This document shows, piece after piece, positions 3,397 through 28,953 of a DNA stretch of 64,000 nt (position 1 is its first letter; each line of letters starts with the position of its first letter). The notes under the pieces are model-generated. The model was not told the DNA's origin. It made no database searches and worked only from the letters and a program-made list of their open reading frames with translations. The DNA is from an uncultured Verrucomicrobiae bacterium. GTDB lineage: Bacteria; Verrucomicrobiota; Verrucomicrobiia; Chthoniobacterales; JAFAMB01. Where the stretch lies: assembly GCA_963762565.1 (NCBI GenBank), contig CAVXLD010000007.1, positions 480,001 to 544,000 of the forward strand. Reading direction: 5' to 3'. Position numbers and translations under genes: made by a program.

Positions 3397-3410
3397 GCCC
3401 GGACCGGGCA

Positions 3411-3568
3411 TCATCGTTCTCGTTCTCGTCGTCGTCCTCGAAGGGACGCTTTCGCAAGCCTCCAGGGCCTCAATCGCGAGCGGGCGCCTTGGTTAGGTCT
3501 CAACCTGTATCGGCAGCAGCACCAACAATCGAGGACGAGGACGACGACGAGAACGATTACGATTACGA
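3411..3568. repeat. Second (GACGAG)n inverted element
   Basis: tcgttctcgttctcgtcgtcgtcctcga ... tcgaggacgaggacgacgacgagaacgattacga. Confidence 0.8.
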
Positions 3569-3662
3569 GCGCCCGAAGAGAACGAATGTGAGGCTACGAA
3601 CAAAACTCGAGTATGCGTGGCTCCTATGCGCATCCCCATATCTGAAGTCCACCACCCAACAT

Positions 3663-3860
3663 ATGGGCAGAACTCAGCGTCGTTTACTTAGAAAGACCGA
3701 GAGCAGCGGAATCGATTCGAGTCTTGATGCCCGTTTACGGCTATTAGCCGTAGGACAACTCGATCGCAAGAGCCAGGACCAATTGTTTATTGAGCTAGCG
3801 AAGAACCCGGGATTAGTAAACCGCCTGGCCGAACATTTGCGAGCCTTGTCTCCCTTGTGA
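3663..3860 (+). CDS. Small hypothetical protein (65 aa)
   Basis: ATG at 3663, non-repetitive amphipathic sequence MGRTQRRLLRK...LRALSPL; upstream part of the 3363 ORF is repeat-derived. Confidence 0.45.
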   Translation: MGRTQRRLLRKTESSGIDSSLDARLRLLAVGQLDRKSQDQLFIELAKNPGLVNRLAEHLRALSPL

Positions 3861-4020
3861 TGTGTTCAGCCCCGTGGACGCGCCATTGAAGAAACGGCGA
3901 ATGGGCGAAACGGCGCCCGAAGTGGGGCAATGAGGGGCTAGGTGTCATGATTTTGAATGGTTGTACCAACATCGGGCAACACGGATCCCGCTATCGCGTA
4001 ACATCCTCACAACCGAACCG

Positions 4021-4113
4021 TCGGGCGCCACTTTCAGGGCGCCTTCCCGCCGCGATCGACCCAGGGCTAAAGCCCTGGGCTATGGTCTTAAGCCGCTTCG
4101 CGGCAAAATCCGA
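4021..4113. repeat. REP-like palindromic element (half copy), related to 46661-46950
   Basis: ctttcagggcg, cccagggctaaagccctggg hairpin and tail agccgcttcgcggcaaaatccga shared with the 46.9-kb copy. Confidence 0.65.
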
Positions 4114-4244
4114 CAGACTCCTACGGCGAGTCCCTGGCGAGCCAGATTGGAACCGAGCTACAGAAGCAGTGGAACATTAGCCCGCCGCAAAACTGCGCCG
4201 GTTGTCACCGATGAACAACGCCGAGAACGGAATCCTGGCAGAAA

Positions 4245-4302
4245 CGCGGAACGCCGAACGCCGAACGCCGAACGCCGAACGCCAAACGCCAAACGGCGAA
4301 CG
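4245..4302 (+). repeat. (GAACGCC)n heptamer tandem repeat
   Basis: gaacgccgaacgccgaacgccgaacgccgaacgccaaacgcc; same unit at 22710-22750 (inverted) and 22935-22960. Confidence 0.85.
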
Positions 4303-5598
4303 TTACATTCCCTCTAGTTCGCGCACGTAGTTCAACGCTGAAACGATTGTGGGAGATTTCGGATTCGAGTCCGCTAACTTAGTCAATTCAGTGTCGGCTT
4401 CGGCGAATAGCCCCGCTCGAGCTAGAAGGAACGATTTTAGGAGGTGCGAAGACTGTGCCGCTTCCGAAGCCAGCGATTGGAGGTCGCTCTCCGAAATGAT
4501 CTTGAATCGTCCGGTTACCGATTTCCCTGGTATGCTTCCTCCAGTAGGGGGCTCAGTGACGTCCCAAACATAAAATCTTCCTGGCCGAAGAGGACCAGGA
4601 ATTGCGAAACTATGTTTGTCTCCGGATAGCTGCGTTTCGAGGACCGTTTCGTTTGTTGCGCAGTCGCGCACTGTGAGAGTTTGATTCTTGGACGCGTCCG
4701 AGCCCGCTGACCAGCTCAATACGGGAATCGTGTCTCGTATAACAATCCCATTTGGCTGAACATCCGGGTCTGGCGTCGCTCGAGGTAGGGCGACGACGGC
4801 GCCGAAAATCTTTCGACTGAAGAAGTACTCACCGCTAGGGAGTTTGGTCTCGGATGGAGCGCGAGTCGTTACCGCCGGCGTCTCGGATAGACCCCGCATC
4901 AGATCCGGTGCCTGTAATTGAGCGTGAGCAAGTTCGAGGATTGAGGTGGCAAGCACAGTAACTGCCTCCCTGGAGAGTGTCGCTGACAGTGGCATCAGTT
5001 GGCCGTCGGCTGACACGTTGAAAGTTAGGGAACCATCTTGGATAGAGTCCATCGCGAGTTGGCTCGGGGCAGGCGATCGGTAAAATAAACCTGTCGAAAC
5101 TACGCCCGTGATGATGACCAAAGCGGCCGCTACCGCTCCCGCAAGAACCAAGGGATTGGCGAACCACTCAGTGACTCGATCGCGGATCGCCTGAAGGTTC
5201 GGTGACTGGTATCGATTGTGCCCCCGGCGTTGCAAAAGCTCAGGCGCATAATTTCGGGAAGGCAATTCTTGGAGCTCGCTCCTGAAGTCCGCCAGATCTG
5301 CGATAGTCTCCCGGCAAAGGGCGCATTTTATCAAATGATCCTCGACGGAACCTTTTTGCAGCGGCATGAGATCGTTGTCTGCGTAGGCGGCAAGTACATC
5401 GTCCGATGGATGCTGCTCGCTGGGCGCAACCGGCAATATCTGGTCTTCCACCGAACCCGCTTTTTCCGATCTAAGCGCAACAAGATCGTTCCGGCACGAG
5501 TCGCAACCTCGAACATGTTCGACCGCGGCAATAGTGTCGGCTGGCGATAGTGACCGCGCCAGCAACCCTCGCCGCAATTGTTCAGTGAGATGAGCCAT
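4303..5598 (-). CDS. Anti-sigma-like membrane protein: 2x zf-HC2, TM, DUF928-like C-terminal domain (paralogue 1)
   Basis: HVRGCDSC and HLIKCALC (HxxxCxxC) motifs, hydrophobic LVLAGAVAAALVIITGVV segment, PVLSW...LRPGRFYVW...ARAGLFAEA C-terminus. Confidence 0.75.
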   Translation of the reverse strand: MAHLTEQLRRGLLARSLSPADTIAAVEHVRGCDSCRNDLVALRSEKAGSVEDQILPVAPSEQHPSDDVLAAYADNDLMPLQKGSVEDHLIKCALCRETIADLADFRSELQELPSRNYAPELLQRRGHNRYQSPNLQAIRDRVTEWFANPLVLAGAVAAALVIITGVVSTGLFYRSPAPSQLAMDSIQDGSLTFNVSADGQLMPLSATLSREAVTVLATSILELAHAQLQAPDLMRGLSETPAVTTRAPSETKLPSGEYFFSRKIFGAVVALPRATPDPDVQPNGIVIRDTIPVLSWSAGSDASKNQTLTVRDCATNETVLETQLSGDKHSFAIPGPLRPGRFYVWDVTEPPTGGSIPGKSVTGRFKIISESDLQSLASEAAQSSHLLKSFLLARAGLFAEADTELTKLADSNPKSPTIVSALNYVRELEGM

Positions 5599-5628
5599 TA
5601 TTCACCAAATTCTGCATTGGTAACCGCA

Positions 5629-8600
5629 ATGCGTCCTTTTGTTACAGATGCAGATGCAGAAACGGTTGCCATATTGCCAATATCTTCAATATCTGGCACA
5701 AACTCATCTATAAAGATTTCGCTCCTAGTCCTTCTTATTTGTCTCGTCGGCCTTTCCTGCGACGCCGATTCACAAACTCAAAATAGTCCAGCGAGCAGAG
5801 ATGGAGCTGATCTTGAGGCCCAACTCGCCAAAGCGAAAGAGGCCGGGCAACGAGGGGATTATGTCGAAGCAGAGCGCCTGGCCCAGCAAGCTTTGGGGTT
5901 CGCCCGGACCAAAGCGGATCCGGATGCGTTAATTGCAGCTTTGCACGAGTCGGGGCAGGCCGCGCTAGGCCTGGGACAGTTCGAAAGCGCTCGGAAGGAC
6001 TTTGACGAGGAATTGGAGGTCAATCGCCGGAACCAGAGCGCCAACCCTATTGGGGAAGCGACGGCTCTCGACGACCTTGCCGAACTTTCGAACGCGACCT
6101 GGGACTACGAAGAGGCACTCAAAACCCTCGGAAAAAGCCAAGCTCTTTGCGATCAAAAGAGCGGTGACGGGCGCGTCTTAAATGCGCGGATCCTACAGGA
6201 CCGGGGTGAAGCCGAGATTGGAATTGGCGAATTCGAGAAGGCCGAAGAACCGATCCAAGCCGCTCTCAAGACGTTCACGAGTGAAGGAGCCCAGCGCGAG
6301 ACACTGACTACCCAGGACGAGCTGGCACGGTCGGAGCTGCTTGTGCGAAAGATGGTGGACGCAAAGGCTCTTTTCACCTCTGTTCTCGAGCAGAGGAAAG
6401 CTCTCCTGGGAGAAAAACACCCAGATACCGCAGAAAGCCAGGCATCGCTCGGTTATTATCATTATGTCGAAGGCGACTACGCGGCCGCTGAGCCGTTATT
6501 TCTGAGCGCGATGGAGACTCTGAGGACGGGTCTCGGCCCCGAGAGCCCGCTGTTCCTTTTGGTTGCTAACTACGAAGCGATGTTGAAAATCCGCACGGGG
6601 CAGTTTGCGGAGGCTCAGCAGATTCTCCAAAAAATATTGGACGCCCGGTTGAAGGTATATGGCGAAGACAGCGCCGCGACGGCCGAGACCCTCAACAATT
6701 TGGCTGCCACTTACTGGAAACAAAATAACCTGGAGAAAACTGCCGATTTACTCCGACAGAGCCTGGCTATCACCGAGAAGAAATCAGGAGAAAGCCTCGA
6801 TACTGCGGATACAGCCAACAACCTGGGCCGAGTGCTGGAAAAGCTGAAGAAATACGATGAGGCGGAGAAGTCATTTATTCGCAGTTTAAGTATCCGGCGG
6901 GCGATTCTGCCTGCCGGACATCCGGATACAGACACTTCGGAGTTCACTCTCGCCAGGCTTTACGACGAAGAAGGGAAGTTCGACCAAGCTGAGCCCTTAT
7001 GGACGCAGGGCATCAGCGCAATGAGCGAGCGTCTCGGAACGCTCCATCGAGACCTGATCTTTGGTTATCAAGAGGCCGCGCTGAATCGACTGGAGCTAGG
7101 TCACCGCGATCAGGCGATAGAGCTCATCCGAAAATATGAGCGGGCAAGCGAAGCCCTGCTGGCCAACATTCTGATATTCACCACAGAAGAAGAACGCCTC
7201 GAGTTTACCCGGACCCAGGATCCGTTCTCGCTGCTAGCCACCGCCGATCTGGGCGAGGACCTGGCGAACGCAGTGCTCCGTTGGAAAGGGATCGTCCTCG
7301 ATTCATTGTTGGAAGATAAATTGGTCGCTTCCCAAGAAGGAGATCCGGCCATTAAAGAATTGGCGGCGGAACTCAAAGCTCAATATAGCGCCTTGAATAA
7401 GGTCCCTCGAGGGATCATCGACAGTTCAGGTAACCCACAAACTGCTGCGGCGAACTCGATTGGCGCAAAAATCGACGAGCTACAAAAACAGCTGGCCCTC
7501 AAGGTGAACGGATATGGCTCTGTCCATCGGGCGCTCAAAGTCACCTACCAGGATGTGCAGGCCGCGCTTACTGACCACACGACGCTGGTGGAATTCCTTC
7601 GTTGCAAAACGTATCAGGGGAAAGGCTCTTGGCTGGACGAATATGGGGCTCTGATTATCGTTCAACATGGCGCTCCGAAATGGATTAATCTCGGGGATGC
7701 TGCCGCAATTGATGCCGCGATCCTTCAGTTTCGAAATGCTATTAGCGGAGATCCTAGCAAATTGTATCCGATTTGCCGCCAGCTGTATGACCGGTTAGTC
7801 GGACCTATCCTTGCTCAGCTTCCGTCTGACTACGACCGATTGATTGTTAGTCCGGACGGCCAATTAAATTTCCTGCCGCTTGCAGTTCTGCTGACGCCGA
7901 ACGGCAAGTTTCTAGGTCAGGGTTACACCATCGGTTATGTGGCCAGCGGTCGTGACCTCCTGCGATCAGCGACGCCCCAGTCAGGCGCTAAGGCAATCAA
8001 GATCTTTGCGAACCCGGACTTTGATCCTGCGGCTCCGACGAAGTTAGCGGAAAAGCGTGGTGACGGAACGCCAAATGAAATCTCCCGTGGGCTTGCGCAA
8101 TCTCTTTCCGCGAGTCTGACGCTTGGGACCTTGCCAGGCACAACCACCGAAGCAGACCTAATCCGGCGTGCCGCTGAGAAAAATGGAATCACCGATGTTC
8201 AGATTCTTCAAGGGGACGAAGCGACCAAAACCGCGTTGTTTGACATAAATTCGCCTTGGGTTCTTCATTTGGCAACGCATGCGCTGGTGTTATCGGAAGC
8301 GCAACTTGCGACCGAGAATCCGATGCATCGCTGCGCCCTGGCTTTTACCGGCGCGCAACGGACTCTGCGCGATTGGGCACACGGTGAGTTTCCTGCCCCG
8401 GAAAACGATGGAATCGTCTTGGCTGATGAAGTCGCGCGTATTCCGTTGACAGGCACCTGGCTAGTGACTTTATCCGCTTGCCAGACCGGTATGGGTGAAG
8501 CGGATGTCGGTGAAGGAGTCCTCGGACTCCGCCGTGGATTCACCATGGCAGGTGCTGAAAATCTTTTGCTGACTCTCTGGCAGATTCCGGATTCCGATAC

Positions 8601-8775
8601 GGCCGAATTTATGTCCTCATTTTATCGGGCTGCGTTTGCCAAACATGACGCCCTGGCCGCACTGACCGAAACCCAGCGCGAAGCTTTGGTCCGTATCAGG
8701 CAAGAGGAAAGTCTCGGCGCCGCCATTCAAAAAGCGGGGCCGTTTGTGCTGACGGTGCAAGCGGGATTGAAATGA
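5629..8775 (+). CDS. TPR-repeat CHAT-domain (caspase-like) protease, probably exported; start codon uncertain
   Basis: Many TPR repeats (HPDTAESQASLG, TAETLNNLA), IVSPDGQLNFLP, LHLATHA (His), VTLSACQTG (Cys), GVLGLRRGF; N-terminal hydrophobic stretch. Confidence 0.9.
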   Translation: MRPFVTDADAETVAILPISSISGTNSSIKISLLVLLICLVGLSCDADSQTQNSPASRDGADLEAQLAKAKEAGQRGDYVEAERLAQQALGFARTKADPDALIAALHESGQAALGLGQFESARKDFDEELEVNRRNQSANPIGEATALDDLAELSNATWDYEEALKTLGKSQALCDQKSGDGRVLNARILQDRGEAEIGIGEFEKAEEPIQAALKTFTSEGAQRETLTTQDELARSELLVRKMVDAKALFTSVLEQRKALLGEKHPDTAESQASLGYYHYVEGDYAAAEPLFLSAMETLRTGLGPESPLFLLVANYEAMLKIRTGQFAEAQQILQKILDARLKVYGEDSAATAETLNNLAATYWKQNNLEKTADLLRQSLAITEKKSGESLDTADTANNLGRVLEKLKKYDEAEKSFIRSLSIRRAILPAGHPDTDTSEFTLARLYDEEGKFDQAEPLWTQGISAMSERLGTLHRDLIFGYQEAALNRLELGHRDQAIELIRKYERASEALLANILIFTTEEERLEFTRTQDPFSLLATADLGEDLANAVLRWKGIVLDSLLEDKLVASQEGDPAIKELAAELKAQYSALNKVPRGIIDSSGNPQTAAANSIGAKIDELQKQLALKVNGYGSVHRALKVTYQDVQAALTDHTTLVEFLRCKTYQGKGSWLDEYGALIIVQHGAPKWINLGDAAAIDAAILQFRNAISGDPSKLYPICRQLYDRLVGPILAQLPSDYDRLIVSPDGQLNFLPLAVLLTPNGKFLGQGYTIGYVASGRDLLRSATPQSGAKAIKIFANPDFDPAAPTKLAEKRGDGTPNEISRGLAQSLSASLTLGTLPGTTTEADLIRRAAEKNGITDVQILQGDEATKTALFDINSPWVLHLATHALVLSEAQLATENPMHRCALAFTGAQRTLRDWAHGEFPAPENDGIVLADEVARIPLTGTWLVTLSACQTGMGEADVGEGVLGLRRGFTMAGAENLLLTLWQIPDSDTAEFMSSFYRAAFAKHDALAALTETQREALVRIRQEESLGAAIQKAGPFVLTVQAGLK

Positions 8776-8884
8776 AAACGAAAAATGTAACCGATGGTGA
8801 GTCCGCGAGTCAGAGGTCGCTTACATGGTCGGTCCGCCCCAAGCAATGTTGCCGACTTCGTGGGCCCACTCTCTTAACTGATCG

Positions 8885-11362
8885 ATGAAAGAGCGCCTCT
8901 CTCCGGTTGTTTTTTCGCTATTGCTTGCCTCTATCGCAGTCGCGCAGCAGAACTCTAGTCAATTGCTCGACGCTGGTTTTACCACGCCGATGTTTGAGTA
9001 CCGACTGGCTTTGCGTAGTGCCTGCCACAAACTAAACGTGGCTCTCAGGGAGGAAGCCGGTGGCTACCACGGAAACGGTCAGGACCTTCTGTTTGCTCAG
9101 GCCATGGTTTCAATCGGTCAACTACTCGATGATTCCTGGTTAACTCTAGTTGGATTCCACTACTGGGGTAATATCGAGCTGTACCAAGCAAAATATCCGG
9201 CCGCACTTGAGCATAGCAAAGCGGCTCTTCGATGTCTTGCTCCCCGGTTTGATATTGACCATCCGGCAACCATCGACTTTGCGAAACTGTCCCAGATCGA
9301 CTTCAAGAATGCCGCTGCCCTGCAGTTTGACGAAATCGCGGTTATTTTTACTAACTGGCAAAAGTTTGATTCTGCTGCGGAATACGCTCGGGCGGCGATC
9401 AAACTTTTGCGACTGGAGAAACCGGGTAACGACGCTCTGCTGGCTAATGCCACGGACCTTTGCGCGACTGCTCTTGAGCAACAGGGACGCTGGACCGAGG
9501 CCCTTCATGGTTACGAAGACGCTAGAGACGTATTAGTTGCTACGCTGGCCAAGCTATCTCCATCCGACCGAATAGCGGCTTCCGACACCAAGTTGGTGCT
9601 GGCTGATACGTGGCGTTCAATCGGATACCTCAAATTGGAACATCTTCAGCGCTCTGATAGACCCGAGGCTCTAACTGATTTTCGGGAGAGTCTGCGTCTA
9701 GCGGAGGAGCTGCGTACTCCCTACGAGGTTACTGAAGGAAAACTTGCGTTGGCGATCTATTTCTACGAGACCGGTGATCTCGATCAATCCCTTTCCTGGG
9801 CCAACGCCGCTGCGGCGTTAGCCGACCCAAGTGCGCAGGGCAGCAACGCTGACACGTTATGGAAAGCGCTTTCTATCCAGGGAAAATGTCTAATCGGATT
9901 GCAGCGATTTGAACAGGCTGAGACGGTGCTTCGCCAAGCAGTCGACGTTATCGAGGGGATGCGCAAGGAAGCGGGGATCGATCGCAGTTCCGCGTCGAGT
10001 TTTTACGACAGTATCGCCTGGTTCTTCGCGGAAAAGACCGGAGCATATGTGGCGCTTGCGCAACTTTTTGCCGACCAAAACCGGAATCTCGATGCGTTGA
10101 AATACACTGAGCTTTCGAGGCAACGAGCTCTGTTGGATGCGCTGGCTAAAACCGGATCCGTAGATGAAACAGCGCAGCCTTCCTTTGTGCGTAATGAGAT
10201 AGGAGCTGCCGGGTTAAGTGAATTAATTCCAGACGAGAATACCGCCATCGTCGAATACTTGTTAGGAGCCGACCGCGGTTACGCTTTTGTGCTGAAGAGG
10301 TCCAAGTCGCCTTTGCCGGTCACAATAACGGCAGTTCCGCTAACCTACCCAAAAGTAGTTCAATCGAGTTCTTTGAGCAGTTCGCTGCAATCACTTGACG
10401 CGCTGGTTGATCACTTCCGCAATCAGATAGAAAAGAGCTATGCTGCTTATCCCAAAGAGCAGGCCGAAGCCCTCTTCAATTGCTTGATCGCTCCGATTGT
10501 GCCCGACATAGCCAACGAACGCGCGGTCGTTTTTGTTCCCGCAGGCAAACTCTGGGAACTTCCGTTTCAGGCGTTGCCTGCAATCGATAAGGAAAAGCAT
10601 CGATATCTGATAGAAGACTTCGCAGTTTCGTACGCGCCCTCTCTAGCTGTGCTTTCTCATCTGCGAGCAGTGCCTCGTCCTGCTTTATCGCGAAGCTGGA
10701 TGTTGGCGATAGGGCAACCCACTATCAAACAGGACGAACCGGAGAATTTTAAGGAGATCACTGGCACCGGGGAAATCGTTCAAGATCTGGCGACCCTATT
10801 TGGCTCTGATGTCGTTAAAAGCTATACGGGTGCGGAAGCGACTAAAGCCAATTTTATGGCTGAGGCTCCGTCAAAGCCGGTCATATTTCTGGCTACCCAT
10901 GCGTTCCTCGATGGTGAAGATCCCCTTAGTTCCTACTTTTTACTTAGTCCGATGCCGAGTCAGTCTGGTAGTGAACGTTTAACTACCTCCGAGATCTTAT
11001 CAATGGGGCTGGCCAGCCGCATGGCGCTTCTGTTTGCCTGCGATACGGAGCGCGGACGGATTGTCCAAGGCGAAGGCGAGATCGGTCTAGCCTGGGCTTT
11101 TCTCCATGGGGGCTGCCTGGCGACGTTAGTGAGTCAATGGCCGGTGGAATTAAGGGCGACAGCAAAACTTTCTTACTTTTTCATGAGCGATCTGAAGAGG
11201 GAACTGAATACATCGAGCGAGACGGCTTTTTCAATTTCAGAGTTGCTGCGCGATGCGCAATTACGACTGTTAAATACCGACGAGTTCAACCATCCTTTCT
11301 ACTGGGCGGGAATGGTGTTAGTGGGCGATCCCAACTGGCGTTCGCAGTCGATTACTCCTTGA
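8885..11362 (+). CDS. Signal-peptide TPR-CHAT domain protease
   Basis: Signal peptide MKERLSPVVFSLLLASIAVA, helical TPR-like region, VPAGKLWELPF, FLATHA (His), LFACDT (Cys), SQWPV, HPFYWAG. Confidence 0.9.
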   Translation: MKERLSPVVFSLLLASIAVAQQNSSQLLDAGFTTPMFEYRLALRSACHKLNVALREEAGGYHGNGQDLLFAQAMVSIGQLLDDSWLTLVGFHYWGNIELYQAKYPAALEHSKAALRCLAPRFDIDHPATIDFAKLSQIDFKNAAALQFDEIAVIFTNWQKFDSAAEYARAAIKLLRLEKPGNDALLANATDLCATALEQQGRWTEALHGYEDARDVLVATLAKLSPSDRIAASDTKLVLADTWRSIGYLKLEHLQRSDRPEALTDFRESLRLAEELRTPYEVTEGKLALAIYFYETGDLDQSLSWANAAAALADPSAQGSNADTLWKALSIQGKCLIGLQRFEQAETVLRQAVDVIEGMRKEAGIDRSSASSFYDSIAWFFAEKTGAYVALAQLFADQNRNLDALKYTELSRQRALLDALAKTGSVDETAQPSFVRNEIGAAGLSELIPDENTAIVEYLLGADRGYAFVLKRSKSPLPVTITAVPLTYPKVVQSSSLSSSLQSLDALVDHFRNQIEKSYAAYPKEQAEALFNCLIAPIVPDIANERAVVFVPAGKLWELPFQALPAIDKEKHRYLIEDFAVSYAPSLAVLSHLRAVPRPALSRSWMLAIGQPTIKQDEPENFKEITGTGEIVQDLATLFGSDVVKSYTGAEATKANFMAEAPSKPVIFLATHAFLDGEDPLSSYFLLSPMPSQSGSERLTTSEILSMGLASRMALLFACDTERGRIVQGEGEIGLAWAFLHGGCLATLVSQWPVELRATAKLSYFFMSDLKRELNTSSETAFSISELLRDAQLRLLNTDEFNHPFYWAGMVLVGDPNWRSQSITP

Positions 11363-12659
11363 GCCGACGGATCTCTCCAATCATGCGATTCAGGAGGTCT
11401 TTGGCAGCAGAGGTCTGGCCGGGCTCGGCTAACAGGCTCTCGAAATCAGCTTGGGCATCATCGAGAAGACCAGCCTTTAGATTCAACAAGCCGTCCAGCA
11501 AGCGGTCGCTACCAATCTCTCTTTTCGACGTGTTCAATTGAGCCACCTCTCCTTGGCTTAACTCAGCAAATTTTGCTTGGGGTTCTTCCACGCCGGGAGC
11601 ATCGATTTCCTGATCGTTTCGAACGGCCGTCACGTACCAGCGGTAACGCACACCTGAAGTAAGGGATATCGACTCGGGTATCGACCATTCACAAGTATTT
11701 GAGTCCGCCGTTGGCGCAGGAATAGCGGGACTAGTTGCGACCTCTTCCTGAGTTCGGTCGTCGGCAATCACATGAACTATGTAAGCGGTCGCACCTGGCG
11801 CAGCAGCCCATTTGAACGCCGGCCGCTCAGAGCTTATCAGGGTGCGATTCGGGCTAATCACATGAAAAGGAGGCTTGGCTGGCGATTGGCCAAGCAAAAC
11901 TGAAGGGGGCCTCTTTAGATTATCTAACGCGTCTTTAACGCTCTGCGAAAACTCGGGGGTCTCGTCCCGCGAGACTGAGCTTACCAGGTTGTTCATCTCA
12001 GCCAGCTCTTTCTTTGGCAGAGCAGCGGGCGGATTTTTGATTTCGTTCGCTTCGAACGCGATGTGGTGATCCCCGTCGAGCACCGCGATTTGTAGCCTCG
12101 ATCCGATGTCCGCAACCCCGGGCGTCGATGGGGAGCGAACTACGATAATGCCTATCGCTACGATAAGCGCAGCGGCCGCGGCCGTGCCCGCGAGGATCAA
12201 CGGCTGCTTGAACCAGGCAAGAAATCCGAGTTTGTCGCGGAGAAAACCCAATGCGCCACCAGATTCAGGGGTGGCTGAGGCAGACGACCAGGAGCTGGTC
12301 CCCGGCGTGTACTCCCGGCGAGGTGTCTGCAGTAGCTCTTCGCGAAAAGGCTTAAGGTCCGCCAAGCTGCGTTGGCAGAGCTCGCAAGTCCCAAGATGTG
12401 CCTCCAGGTCAACCCTGTCCGAACGAGTTAGATCGTCGTCCAAATAGGCTCCCAGCGTATCGGCTGAAGGATGTTCCTCGTTCGGCGTTTCCGGCAAAAC
12501 AGCGTCAACAAGCGAACCGGGCTTAGTCGTTCTCAAAGCCGATAGTTGCTCCCGGCAAGCGTCGCATTCTCGAAGATGTTTGATGACATCGAGAGTCTCC
12601 TCCGGGGAAAGTAACCGCGCCAGGAAGCGATGCTGTAGTTGTTCGGAAATGTGATCCAT
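11352..12659 (-). CDS. Anti-sigma-like membrane protein: 2x zf-HC2, TM, DUF928-like domain (paralogue 2)
   Basis: HLRECDAC and HLGTCELC motifs, TM LILAGTAAAAALIVAIGIIVV, RPAFKW...LTSGVRYRW...KAGLLDDA; clear similarity to 4303-5598. Confidence 0.78.
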   Translation of the reverse strand: MDHISEQLQHRFLARLLSPEETLDVIKHLRECDACREQLSALRTTKPGSLVDAVLPETPNEEHPSADTLGAYLDDDLTRSDRVDLEAHLGTCELCQRSLADLKPFREELLQTPRREYTPGTSSWSSASATPESGGALGFLRDKLGFLAWFKQPLILAGTAAAAALIVAIGIIVVRSPSTPGVADIGSRLQIAVLDGDHHIAFEANEIKNPPAALPKKELAEMNNLVSSVSRDETPEFSQSVKDALDNLKRPPSVLLGQSPAKPPFHVISPNRTLISSERPAFKWAAAPGATAYIVHVIADDRTQEEVATSPAIPAPTADSNTCEWSIPESISLTSGVRYRWYVTAVRNDQEIDAPGVEEPQAKFAELSQGEVAQLNTSKREIGSDRLLDGLLNLKAGLLDDAQADFESLLAEPGQTSAAKDLLNRMIGEIRRLKE

Positions 12660-12765
12660 CTATCTAGCCAGAATCTCGCGTCCGAGCACGAGCCCGTGAC
12701 GCAAATCGTCCTTATTTACATTAGAGATGAAGAAATACGGATCATATTGGTAATAATTTTGAGGT

Positions 12766-13021
12766 TAACCGCGAATGGACGCGAATCGGAACCGCGAATG
12801 CACACGAATGAATAGCCGCAAAAGAACGCAAAGAACGCAAAAATGAGAAAGATTCCCTCGTGATGAGGGTCTTAGGGGACTCAACGACTGAGGCGTGAGA
12901 TGCCGAGTCCGTTCCTTTTGAGGCCGGTTCCTTTTTTCGCGTAAATCCGTATCCATTCGCGGTTGATTTTATCTGCCTCTATCTGCGTTCATCTGCGGTT
13001 GAACTTCGTTGCGTTCTTTGT
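12766..13021. repeat. Cluster of nested 9-10-mer periodic inverted repeats (aaccgcgaatggacgc; gaatagccgcaaaagaacgca; atctgcgttcatctgcggtt)
   Basis: aaccgcgaatgga (12767) vs tccattcgcggtt (~12952); arm gaatagccgcaaaagaacgcaaagaacgcaa 12810-12840. Confidence 0.7.
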
Positions 13022-14705
13022 ACTGCAATAACAACATTTCGTTCGTTTTCGCGAGGATTTTAGGCCGCCATTTTGGTAAGCTGGTCGACGTCGCAGTGGC
13101 GTGCGGCAAGCAAAGCGGTGACGATACGTTGTCCGGTTTTTGTGAGGTGGTAACGATGAGTGCCGGAGACTTTTTGCAGGATTCCATGAGCGCGCAACAG
13201 TGCCAGGCGGCGGGTGATGGCAGCGGCTTGGCGAAGTTGTAGCTTTTTATTAGGGGTCTTGGAGTGAAGCAGTTTTCGTAAATCGCGGTTGCGCAACCCA
13301 TTCAAGCGGAACTCACCCCGATTGATCGCTTCCAATAGCGCACCATCCTCATCGGTCCAGGGGTTGAGAGCACGGTAACGTTGGCCCTTAAGAACTACGG
13401 CTCGGCAAACGCCTAGTGCTTCTTGGTAAAGAGGGGTTTTGCCCGTTGTGCTAGCTAAGGCTTGGAGATAGCGCCGATTAGCAGCTTGGCTGACTTGAGC
13501 TCTTCGCCATAGATCGGCAACTCCAAAGCGCAACGGCAGCCACTTGAGCACTTGCTCGGGATCTCCCTCACTAGCCCGATAAACCTTAAACTGTTTGGGG
13601 TCATTAATGGTGGTCTCTACGCGCAAAATCAGGGCTTGCTTGTCGTAGAGCTTAAGTGAGTTGGCGTTGACACTATGGCGGAGGCGAACTCCTTCGGGTC
13701 GCTGCTTCAGGGTGCTGGTCACTTGACCCTGACATCGAGTTGGCCGGCGCTGGCCAAGGAAGCGCAGCACGTCGGGGCTAGCAAAACTACTAATGCCGTG
13801 ATGTAAAAACTGTGGGTAAAGTGCAGCTAGACTCCTGGCATCTTTAAAAAGCAGATCGGTGGCGTACTCGCTTTGGGCCGCGCTCCAGTAATAACCCTGA
13901 CCCAAAGGAGCGCAGAGCTCGGAGTGTAAGGGATGGCATTGATCAAGCAGAGCGTTTAAGACTTGGGGCCAGTCGGTGTGCAGTTGTTCATCAAGCAGGG
14001 CCTGTGCTGCCACCGCATCCTTTAGTTTGATAAAGCAGTTGTCCGCCTTTTGATACCTCAGCCCGGCTCGATCCATTTGCCGAGCTAACCACTCCCGACC
14101 ATTGAGGCAGACTTCCACTGTAAAAGGAAACCAACTCTGCACCCGTACATGCATCAGTCCAAAATCGGCATGCATGAAGTAGTGATAAAAGTGGGTACAC
14201 ATCCGAGGCTCGATCACTAGATGAATCTCTTTGCTGGTTCGATCACCTCGTACCGAATAGGAATAGCAAGGTTCCTTAGCGCTAAAGAGCACGATCAAGC
14301 CCTTCTTTATCCTGTCCTCTAAAGCAATCTGGCGTGCGTAGTCCTCTTTGGATAGTTTTGGACTGCTCAAATACTGCGCCGGTCGCTTGGCGGCTGCTGC
14401 GGCGCGGTAAGCTGCGGCCTTGACTTTGGCGGTCACACTCTCGGCAAAGTGTTTAAACTCCTTGATGAGCACTCCACAACTGCACAGATAACGTTCCATG
14501 GCCGCGGGCTGAAACAGCAGCCGTAGTGTTCCTCTAAACCGAATCCGGTCGAATCCAGAAAGAATCCCCGTGACGTTCTCTCCAAATTTGCTAAGAAAGC
14601 TCTCTGGAACCCCGTGGGTCGCTGGTATTGGTTGAGTCTTCACACACCAGCTTTTATCAAGCCCCCACGGTGTTCCACCATGATTTGGTTGCGGCTTTGC
14701 CGCGC
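13022..14705 (-). mobile_element. IS-like insertion without terminal inverted repeats, inserted in a repeat arm, flanked by TGT on both sides
   Basis: Removing it rejoins ttgcgttctt-tgt-gctcttttgcggctattc, the reverse complement (2 mismatches) of 12810-12840; terminal hairpin gcggc-ttt-gccgc at ~14691-14703. Confidence 0.75.
13060..14643 (-). CDS. Putative transposase/Rep-like protein with C-terminal winged helix
   Basis: 527 aa ORF filling the insertion; motifs GFDRIRFRGTL, LNGREWL, KLYDK...LRVETTIN, GLRNRDLR...LRAHGILQKVSGTHRYHLT. Confidence 0.65.
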   Translation of the reverse strand: MKTQPIPATHGVPESFLSKFGENVTGILSGFDRIRFRGTLRLLFQPAAMERYLCSCGVLIKEFKHFAESVTAKVKAAAYRAAAAAKRPAQYLSSPKLSKEDYARQIALEDRIKKGLIVLFSAKEPCYSYSVRGDRTSKEIHLVIEPRMCTHFYHYFMHADFGLMHVRVQSWFPFTVEVCLNGREWLARQMDRAGLRYQKADNCFIKLKDAVAAQALLDEQLHTDWPQVLNALLDQCHPLHSELCAPLGQGYYWSAAQSEYATDLLFKDARSLAALYPQFLHHGISSFASPDVLRFLGQRRPTRCQGQVTSTLKQRPEGVRLRHSVNANSLKLYDKQALILRVETTINDPKQFKVYRASEGDPEQVLKWLPLRFGVADLWRRAQVSQAANRRYLQALASTTGKTPLYQEALGVCRAVVLKGQRYRALNPWTDEDGALLEAINRGEFRLNGLRNRDLRKLLHSKTPNKKLQLRQAAAITRRLALLRAHGILQKVSGTHRYHLTKTGQRIVTALLAARHCDVDQLTKMAA

Positions 14706-14720
14706 TGTGCTCTTTTGCGG

Positions 14721-15788
14721 CTATTCATCTGGACTCCTGCTTTGCATTCGCCGGCGTAGGGTGAAGCGTGCCTGACTGCGCAGGTTCACAACGGTTTGCC
14801 TCCGGATCCCTAGGAGACGCGCAATTTGCTGATCGTCCAGGGGTAATCTCGGTAGCACGGAAAGAATCTGGGTTAGCGAGATACCGAGCGACGCGGCGAG
14901 ATCTTGGAGCGTTGCTACTTGGCTCAGTTCGAAATCGAGCAAATCTTCTGCCTTTAATAGGAGCACCGCCCGTTCTTTTCGGTCCAATCGCTGGAGTTGT
15001 TCCCAGAAATTTCTAAGCCGTTCGCGGTTCAGAGATTCGCCGCGAGTTGGTGCTTCGGGTTGTTGGGTTCTCAGCAGCGACTCCAGGTTTCTGTGGTCTA
15101 AGGAAACGCGTTGATCCTTGACCTGTAAGATAAAAGCGACGGCAGTCACGAAATCGTTCCAGGGTAACGGACCGCCTGCCTGTTGGAGCGCCCAGGCGGC
15201 AATCTCCGGGAGAGGTGATGCTGGCGAAGGAAGGTCTTCGATCGAGTTCTGCTCCAAGAGATCAAAGTGCGGAACCGGACCGACGTGTTTCTGGCGCCAG
15301 AGCGTAAAGCCCGCGAGGGAGCCATGCTTAGCGTCCTGCCATTTGGTGAGGCCGGTTTGGCCCGCGCTTTCCCGGCAGAGATAGGCAAGTCTGAAAGAGA
15401 GCCGTGTCCAAAGTGGGGTCTCGTCACGCACCGCTGCTCGCCACGTGTTGAAGCTGGCCCCGGCAACATAAGCGCGGAAGGCGCCAATCCGGTTTTTTTC
15501 GGGTGTGGCATAGACCTGCCAGAGATGGCCCGTGAGCGCCATCAAGGTTTGTTGGCGAAGGTCCTGGGCGTCGAGGTCGCGCTGGTCAATGAACCCAGGG
15601 TTCCGGGATATCGAGGCCGCACCCAGACGCTGGTTGATGACCTTTTGAATGATGCTCAACGCCTCCGTCCGCAGGAGTGCGTCTAGCTCGTCTTTGGCCG
15701 ACGCTTCATCCGGCGCCAACAGGAACGAATGCAACAACACATCTTGCCCGGCCACTCGGCGATCTGCATCTATCTTACGTCGTTCCAT
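14721..15788 (-). CDS. Enlarged ECF-like sigma-70 family factor
   Basis: sigma2-like DAQDLRQQTLMAL...FRAYVAGASFN; sigma4-like LDRKERAVLLL...DQQIARLLGIRRQTVVNLRSQAR; co-oriented with the zf-HC2 gene. Confidence 0.7.
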   Translation of the reverse strand: MERRKIDADRRVAGQDVLLHSFLLAPDEASAKDELDALLRTEALSIIQKVINQRLGAASISRNPGFIDQRDLDAQDLRQQTLMALTGHLWQVYATPEKNRIGAFRAYVAGASFNTWRAAVRDETPLWTRLSFRLAYLCRESAGQTGLTKWQDAKHGSLAGFTLWRQKHVGPVPHFDLLEQNSIEDLPSPASPLPEIAAWALQQAGGPLPWNDFVTAVAFILQVKDQRVSLDHRNLESLLRTQQPEAPTRGESLNRERLRNFWEQLQRLDRKERAVLLLKAEDLLDFELSQVATLQDLAASLGISLTQILSVLPRLPLDDQQIARLLGIRRQTVVNLRSQARFTLRRRMQSRSPDE

Positions 15789-16077
15789 CTCGGTGCCGAT
15801 CTCCGGCGAAGCCGTTCCATTTTGTAGTTACTTCTCTTATAAACAAATGATGAGCAGATTGTGCCCCGGTTGGGCCGGAAAACTTCAAGATCCTGAACTC
15901 GAATTGCCCACAGGAGAAGCATTTTTTCGGTAGCTCGCACCTCCTTCTTCCGTCTCTAAGATTTGAGTAGCGTAGCATAGTGAGGGTTAGGGCACGTCTT
16001 GACCGGAATTCAGAGGGGCCGGCCAGACGTGCCCGGTTTGGTTTTCCACCTGGCTTGCTAGGCGATAGAGTGTCGCC

Positions 16078-16359
16078 ATGCATCCGAAGGAGCAAGAGAT
16101 ACGGGAATTCGCAGCCGCTGCACCTTTTGTGCCCTTTACTCTGGTTGCCGCCAGCGGCGAACGGTACAAAGTCCCGACACACGATCATATCTTCTTCGCT
16201 CCAAATGTCGATGACGATGGGGCGCCATTGCCGGACGGAGAGCGTTCACAGATGTTTACTGTATTCGCCAGAGGATCGCGTGTGCGTCATCTTTTCTTTG
16301 ACCTTATTACCGCGATCGAAACCGAAGGGACACCTGGTACGAAGGAACCGGTGAAATAG
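16078..16359 (+). CDS. Small hypothetical protein
   Basis: 93 aa ORF with PFVPFTL..SGERYKVP..DH motif resembling a small conserved PVC-type protein. Confidence 0.6.
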   Translation: MHPKEQEIREFAAAAPFVPFTLVAASGERYKVPTHDHIFFAPNVDDDGAPLPDGERSQMFTVFARGSRVRHLFFDLITAIETEGTPGTKEPVK

Positions 16360-16376
16360 TCTCTGTGGCGCCAGGG

Positions 16377-17354
16377 TTAAACGATCCGATCAATCAGCGG
16401 TTCACCGTTTTCGAATCTTCGAAGGTTCGCCAGAAAATGTTTGGTCAGGCGCAAGGATTCGTTGTGATGGCCACCACTGCTGTGGGGTGTGATGTAGCAA
16501 TTGGGAGCGGACCACAGGGGATGGTCCGGCGGTAACGGTTCCGGATCGGTCACATCCAGGTAAGCGGCCCTGATTTGCCCTGCTGTGAGAGCATCGAGTA
16601 ACGCGTTTTGATCGGTCGTGGTACCGCGCCCGAGCGAATAATAGCAGGCTCCGGGTTTAAAGCGTGAGAATTTGTCTTTATCGAAGAACCGAATGGTCTC
16701 CGAATTTTCCGGTAAGAAGTTCAACACCTGATCAGCGATCGGAAGGGTTGCGCCTAGTTCATCCAGGGCGAGAACAGTTATTCCCGGGACCGGCTCGGGA
16801 TGGCGCCGGAACCCTAATATCGTGCAGCCGAACGGCTTCAAGAACTCCGCCAGCCGGTGCCCAATCGATCCGAAGCCGGCAATAAGAATCGTCTGTTCCG
16901 AGAGCAGGCTCTCGGCGGCCCTTCTCTCGTTCTGTTGCCATTCCCGGTTCTTCAGCTGATCGAGGTACGACGGGTAAAGCTGCCGGCCGTGCGCCAGCAG
17001 AACAGACAAGGCGTGCTCCGCACAAGGCTCGGAGAACACGCTCGAGCTGTTGGTGAACGCGATCTGGTCCGCCAAAAAGTGATCAAAGACGTCCTTGCGA
17101 TCGTACCGCGTGTAACCTGCGCTGGACACGTGTAGCCAACGAAGGTTTTTCGAAGCGACGATGTCTTCAGCGCTGGGTTGGCCGAAAACGATTGTGGCGC
17201 TCCCGATTTGCGGGTCGCCGCCATTCTCCGCCAAGACATGGGGACCGGCCGCGGCGAGGATGAGCTGGTGGCCCTTGGTTTCCTCCCGAAACAGGTCGAG
17301 TTCCGGTTCCTCTAAGCGAACGTTAGTCCAGATAACAGAAGAATGCTGATTCAT
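16377..17354 (-). CDS. D-2-hydroxyacid dehydrogenase
   Basis: GFGSIG NAD loop, LGRG, LDVTDPEPLP..HPLW, ITPH motifs. Confidence 0.92.
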   Translation of the reverse strand: MNQHSSVIWTNVRLEEPELDLFREETKGHQLILAAAGPHVLAENGGDPQIGSATIVFGQPSAEDIVASKNLRWLHVSSAGYTRYDRKDVFDHFLADQIAFTNSSSVFSEPCAEHALSVLLAHGRQLYPSYLDQLKNREWQQNERRAAESLLSEQTILIAGFGSIGHRLAEFLKPFGCTILGFRRHPEPVPGITVLALDELGATLPIADQVLNFLPENSETIRFFDKDKFSRFKPGACYYSLGRGTTTDQNALLDALTAGQIRAAYLDVTDPEPLPPDHPLWSAPNCYITPHSSGGHHNESLRLTKHFLANLRRFENGEPLIDRIV

Positions 17355-28311: not shown

Positions 28312-28953
28312 ATGAATTTTGAAGGACGCACGTCTGTATTGTCTGTAAGTGGTGGCGGCTTCGGTGAGTCTGTCGAGCAGGATGACATTGCTCTAGTCCG
28401 GCGGTGTCAAAAAGGGGATGCCCTCGCCTTCGAACAGCTGGTCATCAAATACCGGAGCAAGGTCTTTTCGATGATTTACGGAATGGTCCAGAACGAACAG
28501 GATGCCTGGGACCTGGCGCAGGAAGGCTTCATCAAGGCTTGGCGCTCGATCCACCGGTTCAAAGGACAGGCCTCTTTTTATACCTGGCTCTACCGCATAG
28601 TGACCAACGTGGCGATCGATTCGCTCCGGCGAAAGGGTTTTAAGAAAACCGCTGAATTCGACGACGAGATAGCAGCTACTCAAGTTGAGCCGAGTTCGAA
28701 GACCATGCCGCGTCCGGACCCGATGCCGCATCAAGGGTTAGAACGCGAAGAAATCCGGCAACGCATCGAGCACGCCATTAATAAACTTTCACCTGAACAT
28801 CGGGCCGTCATTGTGATGAAGGAAATTGAGGAACTTCAATACAATGAGATTGCCGAGGCCCTGGGATGCTCGATCGGGACGGTGATGTCTCGCCTCTTCT
28901 ATGCGCGGAAGAAACTGCAGACTCTGCTGAGGGACGTCTATGAAAACCTTTGA
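28312..28953 (+). CDS. ECF RNA polymerase sigma factor (RpoE/SigW-like)
   Basis: DAWDLAQEGFIKAW, FYTWLYRI..N, Y.EIA..L.CSIGTVMSRLFYAR. Confidence 0.93.
   Translation: MNFEGRTSVLSVSGGGFGESVEQDDIALVRRCQKGDALAFEQLVIKYRSKVFSMIYGMVQNEQDAWDLAQEGFIKAWRSIHRFKGQASFYTWLYRIVTNVAIDSLRRKGFKKTAEFDDEIAATQVEPSSKTMPRPDPMPHQGLEREEIRQRIEHAINKLSPEHRAVIVMKEIEELQYNEIAEALGCSIGTVMSRLFYARKKLQTLLRDVYENL

Follow-up and report, generated by a model that had tools for sequence, protein, structure and literature searches.

A 64,000-nucleotide stretch of DNA from an uncultured Verrucomicrobiae bacterium (the window; C7:480001-544000 in a 6.1 Mb genome of 15 contigs) carries a locus that seems to divide between two proteins a protease-controlled gene switch so far seen only in one fused chain. 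Side by side it encodes two TPR-CHAT proteases (CHAT1 and CHAT2), two zinc-finger anti-sigma proteins (AS1 and AS2) and a divergent protein resembling extracytoplasmic function (ECF) sigma factors. We infer from sequence and structural models that these genes form a trans-envelope sigma/anti-sigma switch, in which the outside sensor would be a separately encoded, exported TPR-CHAT protein. In the reading that we favour, to which we give a probability of about 0.55, the exported CHAT protein acts on the anti-sigma as its site-1 protease, or as a gate that binds its loop, an M50 protease finishes the proteolysis, and the sigma factor is freed, with at least two protease/anti-sigma pairs feeding one sigma factor. 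The features of the locus, in window coordinates, are the following.

4303..5598, minus strand: AS1, zf-HC2 anti-sigma of 431 amino acids (aa); Pfam zf-HC2, 28.2 bits
5578..8775, plus strand: CHAT1, TPR-CHAT protease of 1065 aa as an open reading frame (ORF); Pfam CHAT E 1.5e-57, TPR_12 E 4.9e-48
8885..11362, plus strand: CHAT2, TPR-like-CHAT protease of 825 aa; Pfam CHAT E 9.7e-54
11352..12659, minus strand: AS2, zf-HC2 anti-sigma of 435 aa; Pfam zf-HC2, 43.5 bits
12766..14737, minus strand: mobile insertion, about 1.97 kb long, between the sigma gene and AS2, recognized from uninterrupted orthologous spacers
13060..14643, minus strand: ORF of the insertion, 527 aa, of no known family in Pfam and NCBIfam scans
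14721..15788, minus strand: probable divergent ECF-like gene of the sigma-70 family, 355 aa; sub-threshold TIGR02937 match, Foldseek and hhalign
15843..15886, minus strand: conserved block upstream of the sigma gene, candidate promoter; alignment of 20 sigma-upstream regions

All five genes described in the initial annotation of this DNA lie where it had placed them and belong to the families it had named, as judged by Pfam and NCBIfam domain scans, in which the sigma gene stays below threshold. The gene counts also fit its suggestion that two pairs serve one sigma factor: the whole genome contains two CHAT genes, both at this locus, and one sigma gene of the family of the 355-aa protein, set against two anti-sigma/CHAT pairs. 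An M50/RseP-like gene is found elsewhere in the same genome (C1:263820-265328).

The initial annotation had proposed that the protease cleaves or binds the outer domain of its anti-sigma, and a complex prediction brings the two proteins together. CHAT2 residues 26-825 were modelled with AS2 residues 236-435, each with an alignment of 12 rows, in three runs and with three controls. The pair reached an ipSAE interface score of 0.72 (runs 0.70, 0.73 and 0.72) against 0.00 for the best of the three controls; the runs agreed on at least 87% of contacts, and the predicted local distance difference test (pLDDT) value of the partner was at least 82. The mark applied to such scores is passed by 116 of 157 solved complexes and by 2 of 215 mismatched pairs, a calibration that is rough here, with our own alignments supplied. 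We know of no similar complex, and recall of a solved structure by the predictor is therefore unlikely.

On the CHAT2 side, the predicted interface includes residues 670-675 and 717-719, among them both His672 and Cys719 of the catalytic dyad. On the AS2 side, it includes residues 250-251, 253-258 and 260, which belong to an invariant, disordered loop. A second patch sets the CHAT2 strand 517-522 (EKSYAAYP) against the Ig domain of AS2. Interface residues are more conserved than the rest in both partners, at 0.76 versus 0.61 in CHAT2 (a difference reached by 9 of 10000 random sets) and 0.91 versus 0.77 in AS2 (8 of 10000). Docking strand and loop alike are retained with the two CHAT types, 4 and 5, that are described below, which would explain how a CHAT of either type can adjoin an AS2-type anti-sigma. 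In silico, the prediction thus supports that CHAT2 and the outer domain of AS2 touch each other directly around the dyad, an arrangement that a substrate and an inhibitor would fit alike.

These results are consistent with a model where the ECF-like sigma factor is held at the inner membrane by the zinc-finger protein AS2, and probably by its orphan paralogue AS1 too. In the periplasm, the Ig-like domain of AS2 would dock on the CHAT strand EKSYAAYP, and docking would lay the loop L248-Q258 (LKRxPSxLLG) across the His672/Cys719 dyad. Upon a signal presumably read by the TPR part, CHAT would cut the anti-sigma in or near the loop, as the site-1 cut; an RseP-type M50 protease would then remove the stub, releasing the sigma factor. 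Several protease/anti-sigma pairs would converge in this way on the single sigma factor of the family. A broader version of the model is tentative and could well fail: exported TPR-CHATs might be exchangeable periplasmic sensors, each reading a different outside cue with its TPR part, all docking via EKSYAAYP on a single family of Ig-domain anti-sigmas and cutting the invariant loop, with one to three proteases and one or two anti-sigmas acting on one atypical sigma factor.

Component proteins

AS1 and AS2 are paralogues by sequence comparison, as had been suggested, with identities of 43% for residues 1-173 and of 24% for the outer part (E 1e-4). Both exceed the Pfam cut-off of 22.2 bits for zf-HC2, and NCBIfam anti-sigma models match AS1 below their cut-offs. 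Each protein contains tandem HxxxCxxC motifs, of which H28/C32/C35 is invariant in 16 of 16 aligned relatives and H88/C92/C95 nearly so, and each has one hydrophobic span after the zinc-finger part (150-168 in AS1, 156-175 in AS2). AS1 consists of a cytoplasmic part with the tandem motifs, a membrane-crossing helix and an outer domain, of the type that we call type 1, which combines an Ig-like fold with helices. AS1 is an orphan in that it lies head to head with CHAT1 and has no sigma gene of its own.

In an AlphaFold2 model of AS2 (pLDDT 73.5), the zinc-finger part forms two three-helix bundles (6-43 and 66-111), and beyond the transmembrane helix the outer part consists of a small alpha/beta domain (191-246), a sandwich of the Ig/FN3 kind (267-366) and TPR-like helices at the end (369-434), with a low-confidence loop at 252-262. 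The loop sequence L248-Q258 is disordered in this model and invariant among orthologues. A Foldseek search with the model returned the C-terminal domain of MtxA (4z29, E 3e-5) as the best match, followed by generic Ig/FN3 folds. The DUF928 family (PF06051; cut-off 26 bits) was matched at 18.2-24.7 bits, always below its cut-off, by AS2 (E 0.0022), by the anti-sigmas of loci L013 and L017 and by several relatives, and PF06051 is the precomputed label of four relatives. A link of DUF928 with CHAT in other phyla, such as cyanobacteria, was considered and dropped, the only paper found with DUF928 being unrelated. Just downstream of AS1, at about 4200-4300, lies a short tandem repeat, and the peptide NAERRTP is repeated there in two overlapping spurious ORFs. 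A small secreted peptide gene at 3400-4300 was considered and rejected, as the ORFs in that region resemble low-complexity artefacts.

The two proteases score 195.7 and 183.2 bits with the Pfam CHAT model (PF12770; cut-off 24). CHAT1 has many TPR matches in a long array, and CHAT2 has weak ones. In CHAT1 the catalytic His lies in VLHLATHA and the Cys in TLSACQTG, both in invariant columns, and in CHAT2 the residues T671, H672 and A673 and A718 and C719 around the dyad are invariant; the His (LATHA) and Cys (SAC/FAC) motifs to which the initial annotation had drawn attention do not vary across the seven CHAT domains that were aligned. The conserved strand EKSYAAYP of CHAT2 spans residues 516-523. 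All eight CHAT proteins examined begin with a hydrophobic segment (Kyte-Doolittle 12-mer maximum 1.6-3.1), which is ISLLVLLICLVG in CHAT1 and MKERLSPVVFSLLLASIAVA in CHAT2, and because of this segment the CHAT proteins are probably exported. Such export-type N-termini, together with an anti-sigma C-terminal domain predicted to lie outside the membrane, make the topology compatible with the one first proposed.

The CHAT1 ORF as listed begins at TTG 5578 and overlaps AS1; a start at ATG 5629 or TTG 5674 is more likely. The overlap, at 5578-5598, is head to head, and the later starts leave just 30-75 bp between the genes, so that with either arrangement each promoter must lie inside the other gene. 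When a profile of seven CHAT domains was compared with the PDB, the single real sequence match was 8rot_B (E 3.7e-8), whose LATHG and LAACEGG segments align with the CHAT His and Cys motifs. The chain has 991 aa, the same length as is stated for DdvA in PMC11506125. PADLOC found no defence family in the locus proteins beyond a weak TPR match in CHAT1 and a weak CARF match in the insertion ORF. There is likewise no evidence against the claim that the system is independent of CRISPR: the Csx29 model NF041237 matched CHAT2 only, at 14.2 bits against a cut-off of 300, and no search was aimed at cas genes or arrays in the window.

The 355-aa protein is very probably a divergent ECF-like sigma factor. 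TIGR02937 matches it at 24.3 bits (cut-off 42.9, E 1.9e-5) over residues 71-348 and Sigma70_r4_2 at 18.9 bits (cut-off 25.7, E 0.0012), and Pfam Sigma70_r2 gave no match in the protein. Among the best 50 matches listed by Foldseek against the PDB for its model (pLDDT 70; two ranks omitted as repeats of other entries), all are chains or models of the sigma-70 family, with E values of at least 0.015. An hhalign comparison with nine ECF sigma factors of the same genome was collinear through sigma2 and sigma4 (probability 58%, E 9.7e-5). A sigma2-like region at about 69-125 is followed by an insertion of about 125 aa and by sigma4 at about 255-350, with a further insert of about 23 aa inside the sigma4 helix-turn-helix. 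The label of ECF-like sigma factor given in the initial annotation thus probably survives in its sigma part, by several comparisons, and needs correction in its ECF part: at 355 aa and with its insertions, the protein is atypical and departs from a standard ECF. The middle insertion (residues of about 190-228) resembles the N-terminal domain of the RNA polymerase delta subunit at a non-significant E of 0.08 (PDB 2krc and others). The genome has 52 TIGR02937 matches, the best of which (122 bits) is an ordinary ECF sigma gene 13 kb away at 28426-28926, on the plus strand.

Upstream of the sigma gene, the block 15843-15886 has the orthologue consensus GAAGTTTCTAGCGCAAGCGGCCACAATCTGGTCATCATTTG in the alignment of 20 regions and may act as the promoter of the gene. 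A 44-nt position matrix of the block found its own site at 15843 only, with no second copy in window positions 1-22000. A 13-nt pattern taken from the block gave 40 matches against 32.4 expected, and there is therefore no evidence of a promoter motif shared between the CHAT genes and the sigma gene. Further upstream, at 15990-16034, lies an inverted repeat with arms of 10 bp, GGGCACGTCT and the complement, separated by about 25 nt; the arms are kept in most of 20 orthologous loci, the loop varies and there is no T-run. This repeat could be an operator or an RNA hairpin. Rfam gave no match at E <= 0.1 in 12600-16450, and a look for RNA evidence over 8885-15900 turned up none.

Gene neighbourhood

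Linkage was followed in scans anchored on the sigma alignment, covering one genome per species and, in addition, metagenomes. The scan of one genome per species yielded six loci, all from Verrucomicrobiota and two of them, L024 and L023, distant, with sigma factors 22-25% identical to that of the window; close protein relatives are named in sources as Verrucomicrobia MAG proteins. The metagenomes yielded 27 loci with sigma factors 74-84% identical to that of the window. By a tally with hidden Markov models, an anti-sigma gene directly follows the sigma gene in 23 of the 27 metagenome loci, and the other four end 125-415 bp past the sigma gene. A convergent CHAT gene comes next in all 17 metagenome loci that have the flank; in six more the contig end cuts the anti-sigma gene. 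Sigma, anti-sigma and CHAT are all present in the reference loci L013, L014, L015, L016, L017 and L024, in differing gene orders, and L037 shows the full gene order of the window. The linkage is kept in the same genus and in one other genus, and there are three deeply diverged paralogous modules with the same sigma/anti-sigma/CHAT adjacency; the sigma factors of L017 and L024 are only 22-25% identical to that of the window. The co-occurrence of the three genes, put forward in the initial annotation, is therefore conserved across related loci, within one verrucomicrobial lineage.

In L013 and L024 the CHAT gene diverges from the sigma operon, with a common control region. In L024 a TPR-CHAT gene points away from a run of genes for the sigma factor, the anti-sigma, a 236-aa protein and a CHASE2 cyclase, and L023 has the same arrangement on a contig that starts 195 bp before the sigma gene. 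In both (L024:6151-9163 and L023:2541-5641; one of them is titled Chthoniobacterales), the 236-aa protein of no family and the CHASE2-adenylate/guanylate cyclase follow the sigma and anti-sigma genes, which hints that this module is wired to nucleotide second-messenger signalling.

Clustering gave four types of anti-sigma outer domain and six types of CHAT, and none of the anti-sigma types strays from its own set of one or more CHAT types. Anti-sigma type 1 and CHAT type 1 share a locus in L013 and L037, in arrangements other than head to head, and are directly adjacent in the window; in L018 anti-sigma type 1 lies head to head with an untyped CHAT fragment, 583 aa long and truncated where the contig stops. 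Anti-sigma type 2 adjoins CHAT type 4 (seven pairs), type 5 (nine pairs) and type 3 (one pair), and anti-sigma types 3 and 4 are accompanied by CHAT types 2 and 6. Beside AS2-type anti-sigmas, one CHAT type occurs in L015, L029, L036, L046, L047 and L050 and the other in the window, L014, L016, L025, L037 and L045. Loci with alternative CHAT types at the same position have sigma factors that are 72-91% identical and CHAT proteins that are 31-35% identical, and on this comparison the alternatives reflect either the replacement of one paralogue by another or the loss of different members from a variable array of CHAT genes. The pairing of protease and anti-sigma proposed for this locus is thus borne out at the level of types, which go together, and is not strictly one-to-one, as the AS2-type adjoins two CHAT types of such low identity.

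Beyond these loci, the anti-sigma outer domain has 1951 cluster representatives at E <= 1e-3 in a library of 1.84 billion proteins, reaching as far as Acidobacteriota. Of the best 150 outer-domain relatives, 78 were scanned: 59 contain zf-HC2, four are long proteins without it (three with Ig repeats and one of 811 aa without a Pfam match), and none of the 78 is fused to CHAT. Among ten representatives that were looked up, one was named to an organism, from Blastocatellia, and the other named ones bear anti-sigma labels. The anti-sigma family was absent at E <= 1e-10 from a sample of 400 other genomes of the phylum, and a tblastn search of plasmids with the outer domain found nothing.

Known systems and rival explanations

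The closest characterized system is DdvA of Myxococcus, in which, according to PMC11506125, a zinc-binding anti-sigma (ZAS) domain and a periplasmic TPR-CHAT are joined in one chain of 991 aa, with catalytic residues H862 and C907. The authors' model is CHAT autoproteolysis followed by RseP, and their search found fused forms only in Myxococcota and one Comamonas. The fusion of anti-sigma and TPR-CHAT in DdvA argues that the two parts work together. The locus described here shares with DdvA and its sigma factor DdvS an HxxxCxxC-type cytoplasmic domain, a single transmembrane helix, a periplasmic TPR-CHAT His/Cys dyad, an adjacent ECF-type sigma gene and the proposed sequence of a CHAT cut and then RseP. 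Unlike in DdvA, protease and anti-sigma are separate polypeptides here, and AS1 and AS2 (431 and 435 aa) contain no CHAT domain; the anti-sigmas have an Ig-like plus TPR-like outer domain of their own and two zinc-finger bundles instead of one. The sigma factor, too, differs from DdvS in its 355 aa with insertions and in having two protease/anti-sigma pairs to itself, and the locus stands in no evident defence island and in a different lineage, Verrucomicrobiota.

A second point of comparison is Craspase, the type III-E CRISPR system of Csx29, Csx30 and CASP-sigma, a TPR-CHAT protease whose substrate controls an ECF-type sigma factor; control of this kind is likewise described in PMC10028731. 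The present locus resembles it in combining a TPR-CHAT protease with a substrate, here a proposed one, that controls an ECF-type sigma factor. Whereas Craspase is cytoplasmic, RNA-guided and bound to Cas7-11, the proteases of this locus have export-type N-termini, and their partner is a membrane ZAS anti-sigma instead of Csx30. In the actinobacterial group ECF54, CHAT and TPR proteins belong to the conserved genomic context, there is no anti-sigma, and the neighbours include subtilase and carboxypeptidase-regulatory-like proteins, as given in the supplement of the ECF reclassification paper (PMC7826278); CHAT is absent from the main text of that paper. The locus differs in having anti-sigmas and in its phylum, and no subtilase or carboxypeptidase-regulatory-like domain was detected in the 14 ORFs scanned around it. 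The concept thus has precedents in the fused DdvA/DdvS pair of Myxococcus (PMC11506125) and in the CHAT-TPR neighbours of ECF54 (PMC7826278). For periplasmic TPR-CHAT with a sigma factor the only paper found was PMC11506125, and none of the papers listed for a CHAT domain with anti-sigma and ECF describes a split form in that listing.

The proposed order of events follows the logic of classical anti-sigma proteolysis. In the RseA/DegS/RseP and RsiW/PrsW systems, a single-pass anti-sigma receives an extracytoplasmic site-1 cut and is then cleaved by an M50 site-2 protease. The same site-1/site-2 logic is proposed here, and the genome has an M50 gene. Unlike in RseA or RsiW, the site-1 enzyme would be a caspase-like cysteine protease of clan CD, in place of a serine protease or a metalloprotease, and it would have a TPR sensor and be encoded beside its substrate.

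A split form of this switch would be of practical importance. In DdvA the CHAT substrate, the cut site and the signal are unknown, and a dimeric membrane protein that is fused in this way is difficult to dissect. In the present locus the protease is naturally separate from its presumed substrate, and a docking strand and a loop of ten residues are singled out by the model, which brings binding and cleavage within reach of work on two soluble proteins and a handful of point mutants. If the reading is true, caspase-like proteases act as site-1 proteases of anti-sigmas outside CRISPR and defence contexts, and a way opens to the trigger of the many zinc-finger anti-sigmas that have an Ig-like outer domain. 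If most of the 1951 anti-sigma relatives work with a neighbouring CHAT, caspase-driven trans-envelope signalling would be widespread and so far undescribed, and DdvA would be its rare fused form.

Several points weigh against the protease reading. The score of the CHAT2-AS2 model expresses the confidence of the predictor and is not a measurement; conserved surfaces attract complex models, and the residues of an active site would be conserved in any case. After a cut at 250-258, about 75-80 residues, including a small folded domain, would stay behind in the periplasm, a longer stub than the classical RseP substrates, such as RseA, tolerate. The AS2 loop of the window itself reads KRPP, where orthologues have KRAP or KRSP. 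The 355-aa protein falls below every curated sigma threshold, a shared promoter motif before the CHAT genes was not found, and in this genome the insertion may uncouple AS2 from the sigma promoter. The comparative record also contributes: the anti-sigmas of L029, L046 and L047 match AS2 at 68-70% identity in the outer part, and the CHAT of these loci matches CHAT2 at only 31-33%; the phylogeny of the AS2 outer domain tracks the sigma factor and not the neighbouring CHAT type, so pairwise co-evolution is not seen within type 2. Lastly, the linked loci all belong to one verrucomicrobial lineage, and independent evolutionary events are therefore few.

Some of these points feed a different explanation, in which the loop in the CHAT active site is an inhibitor or anchor, in the manner of securin, and the sigma factor is freed when the protease leaves. 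The exported protease would then be kept inactive at the inner membrane, with its real substrates elsewhere, for example among envelope or foreign proteins. Proline next to a scissile bond makes a poor protease substrate, and the Pro-Pro that follows the basic pair in the AS2 loop of the window suits a tether, as do the predicted interface at the dyad, which fits an inhibitor as well as a substrate, and the fast turnover of CHAT paralogues beside a stable anti-sigma. Inhibition of separase by securin at a CHAT-type site is described in PMC11506125. Against this, an invariant loop facing an invariant dyad is no less what a working enzyme and its substrate would show, the locus encodes no candidate for an alternative substrate, and the closest characterized system is modelled as proteolytic by its authors (PMC11506125). 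On balance, we regard both the tether itself and the diversion of the protease to other substrates as unlikely.

It is also conceivable that the locus is a conventional envelope-stress switch, and that the CHAT proteins are conserved targets of the sigma factor, exported effectors that make no contact with the anti-sigma. ECF sigma factors commonly control adjacent genes, and the shared control region of the divergent CHAT gene and sigma operon in L013 and L024 is what such regulation would look like; the lack of co-variation between anti-sigma and adjoining CHAT within type 2 points the same way, as does the description of ECF54 with CHAT-TPR neighbours of unknown role in the supplement of PMC7826278. 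This explanation has to contend with a complex prediction at 0.72 against 0.00 for controls and an interface at the active site, with the fusion of both functions in DdvA, which points to direct coupling, with the orphan AS1, which is paired head to head with CHAT1 without a sigma gene of its own, and with a sigma-upstream block that has no copy before the CHAT genes; we consider it quite improbable. Least of all do we expect that there is no sigma switch, that is, that the 355-aa protein is a DNA-binding or other helix-turn-helix protein, and that the zf-HC2 proteins regulate it or something else. Its failure to pass any curated sigma model, the missing Sigma70_r2 match, the roughly 125 extra residues between the sigma2-like and sigma4-like parts, the insert within the sigma4 helix-turn-helix and the weak likeness of the middle part to the RNA polymerase delta N-terminal domain (E 0.08) would be in keeping with such a protein. 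They are countered by the TIGR02937 match across 71-348 (E 1.9e-5), by structural matches that are all sigma factors among the best 50 listed, by the collinearity with nine ECF sigma factors of its own genome (E 9.7e-5), by the position of the gene, which always precedes a ZAS anti-sigma, and by the name 'sigma24 family' that one source gives to its relatives.

Insertion between the sigma gene and AS2

The inserted element that the initial annotation had noticed between the sigma gene and AS2 is real. Orthologous sigma-anti-sigma spacers measure 110-360 bp and are uninterrupted in all 23 metagenome loci that show the anti-sigma, and homology to them ends near 14716 and restarts near 12835-12843. 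An 8381-nt contig from another soil study (run X5) joins position 12765 directly to 14738, with 19 other letters between, and differs from the window in 55 letters over 1766, so a close relative has the empty site. Neither the sigma nor the AS2 reading frame is broken by the insertion.

The 527-aa ORF of the insertion gave no match above cut-off in Pfam, NCBIfam or PADLOC, the weak HVO_A0261_N match reaching 18.6 bits against a cut-off of 35; in a protein atlas it groups with clusters of 'hypothetical protein' of about 520 aa from several phyla. A degraded second copy of the insertion lies at C3:410431-411070. The insertion has an inverted repeat of 23 nt that is 91% complementary, and is bordered by repeats resembling repetitive extragenic palindromic (REP) sequences (12767-13020, and an arm at 14706-14728). 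It may be an undescribed kind of transposable element with a single ORF. The REP-like units are about 35-60 nt long and often form inverted pairs, with at least 51 matches genome-wide, and REP-like repeats occur at very high contig depth in four soil runs.

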